DNA of 64,000 nt, taken from NCBI GenBank assembly GCA_963664625.1, contig OY761541.1, forward strand, positions 2,059,670 to 2,123,669, read 5' to 3'. Below, one piece after another: positions 1-6,885 of the stretch; within the stretch, counting starts at the first letter, position 1, and each line of letters begins with the position of its first letter. The notes below the pieces were generated by a model, which searched no databases, was not told the DNA's origin, and saw only the letters and a program-made list of their open reading frames with translations. Source of the stretch: Dehalococcoidia bacterium. GTDB lineage: Bacteria; Chloroflexota; Dehalococcoidia; Lucifugimonadales; UBA3495. The position numbers and the translations under genes are program-made.

Positions 1-177
1 GAATACCCGATAGGGGAGACCCGATTACGACTGGAAAACCAGGAGGGGACAGTACGGGTAATGTTCGCCCCGGACGATGAAATCCCCCTCATAGGCGCAA
101 CCACATTGGAGATATTGATGCTGGGAATAGACCCGGTTGCGGAAAAGCTGGTGCCGGTGATTGCTCTCCGGAAATGA
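1..177 (+). CDS. retropepsin-like (clan AA) aspartyl protease, C-terminal fragment; 5' end lies outside the window
   Basis: Frame 1 is open from the window edge to TGA 175-177. The translation ...RLRLENQEGTVRVMFAPDDEIPLIGATTLEILMLGIDPVAEKLVPVIALRK aligns collinearly with the C-terminus of ORF 205-561. Confidence 0.6.
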   Translation, partial: EYPIGETRLRLENQEGTVRVMFAPDDEIPLIGATTLEILMLGIDPVAEKLVPVIALRK

Positions 178-204
178 TGTATTGATTACCTGTGTAGAGG
201 GAGC

Positions 205-561
205 ATGAGCACATTCACAGTTAGCCTGGAAATCGCCGATCGCTTTCGAGAACAACACATTACCCTCGAAGCCTTGGTTGATACCGGGGCTACATATACT
301 TCCGTGCCAAGGGGCACCCTGACCGGATTGGGAATAGAGCAGATAGAAATCCGCAGATTCAGGTTAGCCGACAACCGTCTAGTAGAGTACCCAATGGGCG
401 AAGCGCGTTTACGTCTGGATGGCCGGGAGTTCACTGCTCCGGTGATTTTCGCGTCTGACGACGGCCCGGCACTGGTGGGAATGACCACCTTGGAGATTTT
501 TGGTCTGGGGGTGGACCCCATTGAAGAAAAGCTAGTGCCTGTGATTGCTTTGGGGCGGTGA
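205..561 (+). CDS. retropepsin-like aspartyl protease (single DTG lobe)
   Basis: 118 aa with LVDTGATYT, the D-T-G-A active-site signature. The size fits one retropepsin lobe. It is a tandem paralogue of 1-177 and overlaps the next gene by 4 nt. Confidence 0.7.
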   Translation: MSTFTVSLEIADRFREQHITLEALVDTGATYTSVPRGTLTGLGIEQIEIRRFRLADNRLVEYPMGEARLRLDGREFTAPVIFASDDGPALVGMTTLEIFGLGVDPIEEKLVPVIALGR

Positions 562-1484
562 CGGTATTTGAAGAGTTCCGTCGCATGACCGCTTGCTATC
601 CTGTACTTGAAGTACAACCGGAGTGGGTAATTGAGTCGGAAAATATGGGAAGCAAGGAGAAATCCTGGTACTTGGTTCCAGAACTCAATGAATCGAATTG
701 GTTGCTAAAATATCCTCGTCGGCCGGGCAGCGGTGAGCATTGGGCGGAAAAGATAACTTCCGAAGTGGCGAAAATCCTTGGAATTCCATGCGCTCGGGTA
801 GAGTTGGCCAGATTTAATAATCGAGTTGGCTCAGTAACTGAGAATATAGTACCCGATGATCAAGAGTTGGTTCATGGCAACGAAGTCCTCGAATATCATG
901 TCCCACAACCTGACGCTAGGGTTTTGAACTTTCGTCTTTCCGATCACACTCTGCAAAACATCTGGGCAGCCTTGGACAACGCTTTTGAATCCGACCGTGA
1001 TGCGGTTGAAGCCAAAGGTCAGTTTTCTCACTATCTGGTGCTCGACGCAGTAGTCGGCAACGTTGACCGGCACTCCGAGAATTGGGGCTTGTTGCAATTG
1101 CAAGGCGGTGATCAATTAGTGGAGTCGCTTTCTCCGTCATATGATCATGGCTCTTCCTTGGGGCGGGAGCTTTCCGACGAACGCAGGGAGCAACGCTTGG
1201 CAAATGGGAGCGTAGGCGAATATGCCGAGAGAGGGCGAGGGGGTGTTTACTGGTCGGATGCCGATAGATATGGCCCAAGCGCTTTGCAGTTGGTCCGCCT
1301 GGCGTCTGGTGAGTACCCAGCATTATTGCTTCCCGCCATCGAAAATCTAAGGCAATTAGACGACGTGACTCTGCACCACATTGTTAGCAAGGTGCCCAAC
1401 GATTGGATGTCAGAGTTGGCTAAGTCATTCGCATTGGAGTTGATGAGTTACAATCGCGAACAGTTACGAGGGGTTGTCCGGTGA
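558..1484 (+). CDS. HipA-like Ser/Thr kinase (kinase core only)
   Basis: VGNVDRHSENWGLL matches the HipA_C catalytic GN-DRH-N motif. It has 4-nt overlaps with both neighbouring genes. At 308 aa it lacks the N-terminal subdomain of full-length HipA. Confidence 0.75.
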   Translation: MTVFEEFRRMTACYPVLEVQPEWVIESENMGSKEKSWYLVPELNESNWLLKYPRRPGSGEHWAEKITSEVAKILGIPCARVELARFNNRVGSVTENIVPDDQELVHGNEVLEYHVPQPDARVLNFRLSDHTLQNIWAALDNAFESDRDAVEAKGQFSHYLVLDAVVGNVDRHSENWGLLQLQGGDQLVESLSPSYDHGSSLGRELSDERREQRLANGSVGEYAERGRGGVYWSDADRYGPSALQLVRLASGEYPALLLPAIENLRQLDDVTLHHIVSKVPNDWMSELAKSFALELMSYNREQLRGVVR

Positions 1485-2221
1485 GTACGAAGACGGTGTT
1501 TCTTGCTTGGCAGGACAAAGCAGAGAGCCGCCATTGGTTTCCCGTAGGTAGGCTGGATGCTGATTCGGATTGCTCCAATTACCGCTTCCGGTACACTGGT
1601 GGAATGTTGCGGGCACAGAAAGAGGCCGGGTTTCGGCCTATAATCAGTTTCCCTGATTTGCATAAAGACTATCGCTCGGCCAAACTCTTTGCCTTGTTCA
1701 GCAACCGCGTCATGTGGTCAAGCCGGCCGGACTTCCCTGCATACCTGCAATCTATGGACTTGCCCAAGGACGCCGATCCCATGGACATGCTGGCGGTAAG
1801 CGGAGGTTCCCGGATAACCGATTCTTATGAGGTATTCCCCAAGCTATTGAAGAACCCCAATGGTGCATTTGTGTGCCGGTTCTTTCTGCATGGAGGCCGC
1901 CACGTTAGCCCCTTTGCGCAAGAGAGGCTAAAAACCTTGAATCAAGGTGAAAAGTTGTACGCGGCAGTAGAACTAACCAATCCCCTCGGCGAATTGGCTT
2001 TTCAAATCCAGACGGACGACTATCAAATGATAGGATGGTCCCCACGTTATCTGGCGCCGGACTTGGTCAAAGTCGAAGCACCCGGTTCACTGACGCTGAA
2101 GGTAGTCCGCGTCAACCCGATGCCAACCCCGTCCGAGCAGCGCGTTCTGGTCGAACTAAGCGGTCGATGGGGAAAACACGAGCCGATGACTGGCCCGGAT
2201 TTCCAGCCACTCGTTGATTAG
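1481..2221 (+). CDS. HipS-like N-terminal domain fused to a HIRAN-like domain (putative partner of the kinase)
   Basis: It overlaps the kinase stop. The N-terminus (VFLAWQD...WFPVGRL...YRFRYTGG...LFALFSNR) resembles the HipA N-subdomain. The C-terminus (LHGGRHV...LNQGEKLYAAVELTNPLGELAFQIQTDDYQMIGWSPRYLA) has a HIRAN-like pattern. The domain call is from memory of these patterns. Confidence 0.45.
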   Translation: MSTKTVFLAWQDKAESRHWFPVGRLDADSDCSNYRFRYTGGMLRAQKEAGFRPIISFPDLHKDYRSAKLFALFSNRVMWSSRPDFPAYLQSMDLPKDADPMDMLAVSGGSRITDSYEVFPKLLKNPNGAFVCRFFLHGGRHVSPFAQERLKTLNQGEKLYAAVELTNPLGELAFQIQTDDYQMIGWSPRYLAPDLVKVEAPGSLTLKVVRVNPMPTPSEQRVLVELSGRWGKHEPMTGPDFQPLVD

Positions 2222-6615: not shown

Positions 6616-6885
6616 GACGGCCTGCCTCCTCGGATAGAATTGCTTCCACAGCTTCAGGTGTGGCGTATCACGGGCTAGTTTCTCAATTATGAGCGTGTTT
6701 GGCAATGCCGCAGCCCGACCGTTTAACGTTGAGGCCTTTTCATTCCCTCGTCTTTCCCGATCAGGCGGGAAACCATACAGGCTTGCCATGAGAAGGTTGC
6801 CATAGGCCTGTGTTGCGTCAATTCGACATAATGCTAGAATTAGATTCGCGGAGTTGAATGCCCCAGTACCACGCCCCGGAAAGGA

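Follow-up and report, generated by a model that had tools for sequence, protein, structure and literature searches.

Are the small retropepsin-like proteases encoded directly upstream of a HipA-like kinase part of the kinase's functional module, or only its neighbours? This question is raised by the first 2,221 nucleotides (nt) of a 64,000 nt stretch of contig OY761541.1 from a Dehalococcoidia bacterium, referred to in the following as the window (G000:C1:2059670-2123669, on a single source contig of 3.76 Mb). A first-pass annotation, made from the sequence alone, had described four open reading frames (ORFs) on the + strand (1-177, 205-561, 558-1484 and 1481-2221) with a 27 nt gap separating the two protease ORFs, all of which we recovered, and had read them as one translationally coupled operon of two retropepsins, a HipA-like kinase and a HipS/HIRAN-like partner. 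This observation as a whole is confirmed in part, and the interpretation given to it is likewise supported in part. The best explanation of our results, to which we assign a probability of roughly 0.78, is a two-gene hipIN module (585-2221) formed by the kinase HipI and its partner HipN, with the retropepsins as neighbours and not as components. The coupling to aspartyl proteases, which was the novelty proposed earlier, is not supported.

The features of the locus are listed below, in window coordinates unless marked G000; protein lengths are given in amino acids (aa).

585-1484, + strand: hipI, short HipA-like Ser/Thr kinase, putative toxin; 299 aa from ATG 585
558-1484, + strand: longest ORF of hipI; 308 aa from GTG 558
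1481-2221, + strand: hipN, putative antitoxin/sensor; 246 aa, GTG start, match to PDC-M03B, predicted structure with a mean predicted local distance difference test score (pLDDT) of 85
1481-1852, + strand: HipS-like N-domain of HipN (residues 1-124), assigned by fold match to HipS chains
1862-2170, + strand: HIRAN domain of HipN (about residues 128-230), assigned by fold match and by Pfam HIRAN in relatives
205-561, + strand: retropepsin-like paralogue 2; 118 aa, DTGA, PF13650 match above the gathering score
1-177, + strand: 3' part of retropepsin-like paralogue 1 (58 codons and stop), 5'-open at the window edge
G000 2059490-2059846, + strand: complete gene of retropepsin-like paralogue 1; 118 aa, DTGS, start 180 nt before the window

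Domain Structure of HipI and HipN

The kinase had been described as a HipA-like core with a GN-DRH-N loop and without the N-subdomain, and both statements hold. HipA_C matches residues 34-191 of the 299 aa form (4e-9), the N-subdomain being absent, and the loop in the window reads GNVDRHSEN. Among solved structures, the HipA-like kinase CtkA comes closest (1.3e-4). A Gly-rich loop MGSKEK (residues 21-26 of the 299 aa form), the catalytic DRHSEN and the Mg-binding SYDHG are all recognizable. Across 25 family members, G31/K33/K35, D170/H172/N175 and D196 are invariant, and the window kinase possesses every one of these residues; a Ser adjoins the Gly-rich loop formed around G31/K33/K35. The source genome contains a single copy of the kinase.

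HipN required a different approach. Neither Pfam nor NCBIfam yielded a match to the window HipN sequence alone, PDB sequence searches with HipN or with a profile of its N-domain had no match, and a profile of the HipN family found 3k2y as its sole match in PDB (E = 1). Fold comparison was needed to identify its domains. An AlphaFold model of HipN, based on an alignment of 38 sequences, reached a pLDDT of 85. Its C-terminal half matches 3k2y (E 1e-4, template modelling score, TM, 0.74) and the HIRAN domain of HLTF (4s0n, 6kcs, 4xzg and 5bnh, probability 0.99-1.00). Residues 1-124 modelled alone (pLDDT 87) have as their top three folds in PDB the HipS chains 7vkb_B, 8ezr_A and 7ab3_E (probability 1.00, TM 0.74-0.77). 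The relatives of HipN are more accessible to sequence profiles: Pfam HIRAN is reached by 35 of 38, with 1.5e-8 as the best value, and Pfam Couple_hipA by 9 of 38. The predicted structures thus show HipN as a HipS-like N-domain fused to a C-terminal HIRAN domain. The HipS- and HIRAN-like character that had been suggested for the downstream protein is borne out by fold and by Pfam on the relatives, with the window copy itself remaining without a Pfam match.

This architecture corresponds to a described gene family. The earlier remark that HIRAN-bearing partners had been noted in surveys of HipA homologs was correct and refers to hipIN (Gerdes et al., 2021; PMC8262856), in which a short HipI kinase without N-subdomain 1 is followed by HipN, a HipS-like domain joined to HIRAN. 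The HipI kinases of that study are 279-321 aa long and form subclades from Actinobacteria, Firmicutes, Proteobacteria and Cyanobacteria (PMC8262856). In agreement with this, the window kinase has 299 aa, consists of the core only and carries its Gly-rich loop, with the adjacent Ser, near the N-terminus; the locus is bicistronic without HipB, and the downstream gene combines a HipS-like N-domain with a C-terminal HIRAN. The window member differs from the described subclades in its origin, which is Dehalococcoidia (Chloroflexota), and its close relatives are encoded in marine and sponge metagenome-assembled genomes (MAGs) of many phyla. Window positions 585-2221 are an ordinary member of the hipIN family, a membership which rests on architecture.

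Both proteins also match PDC-M03, a phage-defense candidate of PADLOC, end to end, adjacent and in the expected order: the kinase covers positions 2-301 of 302 of PDC-M03A (6.2e-79) and HipN positions 1-242 of 245 of PDC-M03B (4.8e-77). In addition, kinase and HipN match PHROGs 8728 and 8026. A more distant resemblance exists to HipBST of E. coli O127 and HipST of Legionella pneumophila (7ab3, 7vkb, 8ezr), in which HipA is likewise split and the kinase core is separate from the N-subdomain-1-like domain. However, the gene order in the window is reversed, with the kinase first and the HipS-like protein second, the HipS-like domain is fused to HIRAN, and the helix-turn-helix (HTH) protein HipB is missing. 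No HTH domain was found in the four window products, and the flanking genes encode an amidohydrolase and an inositol monophosphatase (IMPase), so the composition of the locus is not that of HipBST. The target of HipT is TrpS.

hipI and hipN as a Gene Pair

In order to see how constant this pair is, the best 80 of at least 574 related kinase loci were surveyed; some of the tallies given below cover 83 loci. HipN is encoded directly downstream of the kinase in 79 of the 80, and the single exception runs off its contig. These loci span Chloroflexota, Latescibacterota, Binatota, Gemmatimonadota, Acidobacteriota, Pseudomonadota, Spirochaetota, Verrucomicrobiota, Rhodothermota, Nitrospirota and Tectimicrobiota. 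Moreover, the sequence identities of kinase and HipN track each other (50/57, 74/76, 81/87 and 78/82%). Abutment or overlap of hipI and hipN recurs across the family; in the window, the GTG start of hipN overlaps the hipI stop by 4 nt (GTGA, 1481-1484). Kinase and HipN are one unit.

The nearest relatives of the window kinase (L016-L095) are distributed over at least ten phyla, and many of them derive from MAGs of sponge or marine origin (Entotheonella, Poriferihabitaceae, Palauibacter poriticola, Latescibacterota, Binatia), which suggests an exchange of hipIN across phyla within one habitat. Plasmid-borne relatives of HipN are annotated as HIRAN proteins. A distant pair of HipA_C and HIRAN genes with a 4 nt overlap was observed in Vibrio phage 10N.222.46.E12_PE001 (Vinavirales; L118:2471-4185), where it adjoins an integrase at the end of a temperate, prophage-like element of 14.6 kb, a position typical of accessory or defense genes.

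Allelic Variation and Selection at the Locus

Four loci from close relatives (L024, L096, L097 and L098) were compared with the window. The flanking genes are 94-98% identical at the protein level, and between them the kinases are 49-81% and the HipN proteins 55-87% identical. The kinases at this one chromosomal site fall into two well-supported, deep clades, and the window and L024 carry different clades despite near-identical flanks; synonymous divergence (dS) between the two clades is saturated in this comparison, so no ratio of non-synonymous to synonymous divergence (dN/dS) could be computed for it. Compared to L096, cassette and flanks have equal dS (about 0.45-0.6), while compared to L097 the dS of the cassette amounts to 1.0-1.8 vs. 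about 0.5 for the flanks. dN/dS in the L096 comparison is 0.17 for the kinase and 0.11 for HipN, compared to 0.03-0.07 for the flanks; the overall ranges are 0.16-0.17 for the kinase and 0.11-0.12 for HipN. As these ratios are low, both hipIN genes are under purifying selection. We conclude that hipIN is a hypervariable cassette between conserved flanks and that recombination exchanges its old alleles, a pattern often seen in conflict genes. Balancing selection from phages may even maintain two ancient classes of hipIN alleles at this one site.

Broken genes among the 83 loci affect kinases only (2 of 83) and never HipN. The kinase at L023:6001-6900 is interrupted by a single in-frame stop, its ORF ending at 6711, and the HipN downstream is intact. 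In the close relative L098 (5001-6776, ENA contig_3), an insertion sequence with DUF4096 and DDE_Tnp_1 ORFs lies between hipI and hipN; the kinase is cut to 258 aa and HipN is again intact. Decay restricted to the kinase fits a kinase acting as toxin and HipN acting as antitoxin.

The Upstream Retropepsin-Like Genes

Both small proteins are retropepsin-like, as had been read from the sequence. Above the gathering cut-off of PF13650 (Asp_protease_2; 24.3 bits) lie paralogue 1 in its complete form (8e-8, 33.3 bits; also PF13975 with 1.7e-7) and paralogue 2 (1.2e-5, 26.4 bits), and the DTGA motif in the second copy was confirmed. The two are 59% identical and differ in DTGS vs. DTGA at residues 26-29. 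They share with the stand-alone retropepsin-like proteins of clan AA from bacteria and archaea (PF13650/PF13975; TIGR03698) a length of about 118 aa, a single lobe and D-T-G-A/S at these residues, and they align end to end to TIGR03698; however, their scores of 46 and 49 bits (5e-12 for paralogue 1) are below its cut-off of 57.35 bits, which does not establish them as members of this subfamily. The upstream paralogue, described earlier as truncated, is a complete 118 aa gene in the genome and is cut by the window edge alone. It begins 12 nt past the amidohydrolase gene, on the same strand, in the genome sequence upstream of the window.

The family is unusually expanded in the source genome, with 26 copies in 3.76 Mb. 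These are stand-alone genes for proteins of about 118 aa, most with an intact DTG[AS] (examples are G000:C1:1729009-1729811, 2962325-2962681 and 3672602-3672955), and are wedged among housekeeping genes with gaps of 0-100 nt. Their neighbors include genes for glycerate kinase, acyl-CoA dehydrogenase, aminotransferase, a GatA-type amidase, a class II tRNA synthetase, a short-chain dehydrogenase/reductase (SDR), UbiX, UbiE, a DNA methylase and a CoA transferase, and the packing may be very tight (1 nt overlap with ubiX, 5 nt gap to ubiE). Tandem pairs also occur elsewhere in the genome, e.g., at 1729009 and 1729446. Clustering the neighbors of all 26 copies brought up large families of metabolic paralogues but no partner that recurs. 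In a close relative, the family numbers 18 copies compared to 26, indicating gain and loss between the genomes. Small ORFs located beside some of the copies are mostly spurious in appearance. Furthermore, a divergent retropepsin-like ORF (137 aa, VDTGAD; G000:C1:2406081-2406880) overlaps an upstream 129 aa ORF by 4 nt, and the two may form a two-gene unit.

Linkage to the kinase was examined by searching for retropepsins within 6 kb of each kinase, using tblastn and a profile hidden Markov model of the 26 copies. A protease was present at 8 of 83 loci, all of them representing one syntenic Dehalococcoidia locus, and at none of the 62 non-syntenic hipIN loci. Nine further syntenic loci are without protease, and the kinase there abuts the amidohydrolase. 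Over the syntenic loci, the gene order is prs, amidohydrolase, proteases (0, 1 or 2), hipI, hipN, the IMPase gene on the opposite strand and an SDR gene. Mapped on the kinase tree, protease presence requires several gains or losses and is clustered no more than shuffled labels. In L024, L097 and L098 the proteases are 97-99% identical, like the flanks, and the adjacent kinases are 49-76% identical; because near-identical proteases thus stand beside divergent kinases, protease and hipIN alleles reassort independently. A 4 nt overlap joins the protease to the amidohydrolase stop in L097 and L098, yet 21 nt separate it from the kinase. Linkage of proteases to such kinases in other genomes, by which the earlier proposal was to be judged, is seen only in relatives carrying the same inherited locus, and the proposal is thereby refuted in part by its own standard. 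The two upstream retropepsin genes are bystanders, members of a large and fluid family found at the ends of gene blocks, and are neighbors of hipIN at one inherited chromosomal site.

A possible inclusion of the protease in the variable cassette was considered as well, as the protease at the locus is 75% identical to that of L097 and its dS in this comparison is raised. Since the syntenic protease orthologues that these two genomes share at other sites have identities of 70-91%, the value of 75% is within the range of the family. With one protease allele beside very different kinases in addition, this was rejected as evidence for coupling.

The impression of a coupled operon was based on 4 nt start/stop overlaps at two junctions. 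That of hipI and hipN (1481-1484) is real, but the protease-kinase overlap at 558-561 is probably a start-codon artefact of choosing the longest ORF. The position of ATG 585 is the start in all 24 of 24 aligned kinase relatives. From this codon, the window kinase begins with MTACYPVLEV..., the family consensus being M-x-D-x-Y-P-I-x-E-V, and the nine extra residues gained from GTG 558 are unique to the window kinase among the aligned sequences. It is this conservation of the ATG 585 start, together with the restriction of the nine residues to the window, which leads us to regard the overlap as a probable artefact. Judged by the alignment, the true hipI start is most likely ATG 585, which gives a protease-kinase spacing of 23 nt; the corresponding gap is 21 nt in L024, L097 and L098.

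Proposed Mode of Action and Alternative Explanations

For the hipIN module, the following mode of action appears plausible. HipN would supply in trans, by its HipS-like N-domain, the N-subdomain 1 which is missing from HipI. Its HIRAN domain may sense or bind free 3' DNA ends, such as those of replication intermediates or phage DNA, which would appear upon DNA damage or infection by a phage, and HipI, when released, would phosphorylate an essential component of translation, probably an aminoacyl-tRNA synthetase, causing growth arrest; both steps follow the analogy to HipBST and a published proposal (PMC8262856). The module would then act as a toxin-antitoxin (TA) or abortive infection system.

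Some points weigh against this explanation. Toxicity, neutralization, DNA-end sensing and defense are all properties which we infer for the pair by analogy. The PDC-x systems of PADLOC are unpublished, untested candidates (PMC11811056) and PDC-M03 is among them, so that no function can be transferred from it to the window pair. No experimental study of HipN, hipIN or PDC-M03, nor of HIRAN together with a kinase against phages, appeared in the literature that could be searched. On the other hand, hipIN might be a plain chromosomal TA or addiction module, or a growth-control kinase of the persistence type, without any part in phage defense; HIRAN would in that case serve DNA-binding autoregulation in place of HipB. 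The lack of an HTH or HipB-like gene makes such control of the operon by DNA binding plausible, the locus is fixed among housekeeping genes with no obvious defense island, and kinase-only decay suits any TA system. Nevertheless, we consider this explanation rather unlikely, given the deep allelic diversity between 94-98% identical flanks with two kinase clades at one site, which is typical of conflict genes, the occurrence of the family on prophage-like elements and plasmids, and the existence of a PADLOC candidate model for hipIN, although none of these observations is decisive.

Two further explanations would give the proteases a function. According to the first-pass annotation, all four genes form one module, in which a retropepsin homo- or heterodimer would degrade or process HipN, or activate HipI, and so trigger a kinase-based TA or defense system. 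Alternatively, one or both retropepsins upstream of hipI could have been recruited secondarily in this Dehalococcoidia lineage as an accessory, for instance trimming or degrading HipN. If so, a proteolytic trigger would have been added to the kinase/HipS-HIRAN module, and the DTGS/DTGA pair could heterodimerize. A number of findings speak for a local association of the proteases with hipIN. Where present in the syntenic loci, the protease is always immediately upstream of hipI, on the same strand and at a short gap, as seen in all eight. A low G+C content is common to the whole block: the proteases have 51% and 54%, hipI 50.5% and hipN 54%, compared to a genome value of 59.6% and a protease family median of 56.6%, both locus proteases being among the lowest of the 26 copies and paralogue 1 the lowest. 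In comparison with L097, the dS of protease, kinase and HipN all exceed that of the flanks. Between the genes, no promoter or terminator was detected, though a scan of the six-gene region found none above shuffled expectation anywhere. A single four-gene module is nevertheless very unlikely in our view, because retropepsins are absent within 6 kb at all 62 non-syntenic loci and from nine syntenic ones, the syntenic locus contains 0, 1 or 2 of them, and the 26 scattered copies are packed equally tightly against unrelated genes such as ubiX and ubiE. Furthermore, it does not agree with near-identical proteases beside kinases of 49-76% identity, that is, with missing co-variation of alleles, nor with a protease which in L097 and L098 overlaps the amidohydrolase and keeps its distance from the kinase, and the overlap with the kinase on which it had relied is probably not real. 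We regard a secondary recruitment as similarly improbable.

The two-gene hipIN module, therefore, remains our preferred explanation. hipIN had been catalogued in 2021 and is contained in PADLOC as an untested candidate; added here are evidence from structure prediction that HipN combines HipS and HIRAN, evidence of a wide exchange of hipIN among phyla of marine and sponge-associated bacteria, and the hypervariability of the cassette, with flanks 94-98% identical and breakage confined to the kinase, which is the behavior expected of a conflict or toxin module. At the same time, the protease arm is removed as a tempting false lead, as small retropepsin genes are numerous here and fluid neighbors of anything.

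Further Observations Upstream of the Window

The - strand about 5 kb before the window contains an ORF whose product has a DPPY motif (L002:4093-4878, corresponding to G000:C1:2053762-2054547). Read by eye, it resembles a DNA N6/N4 methyltransferase, and it adjoins a small ORF at L002 3594-4034.

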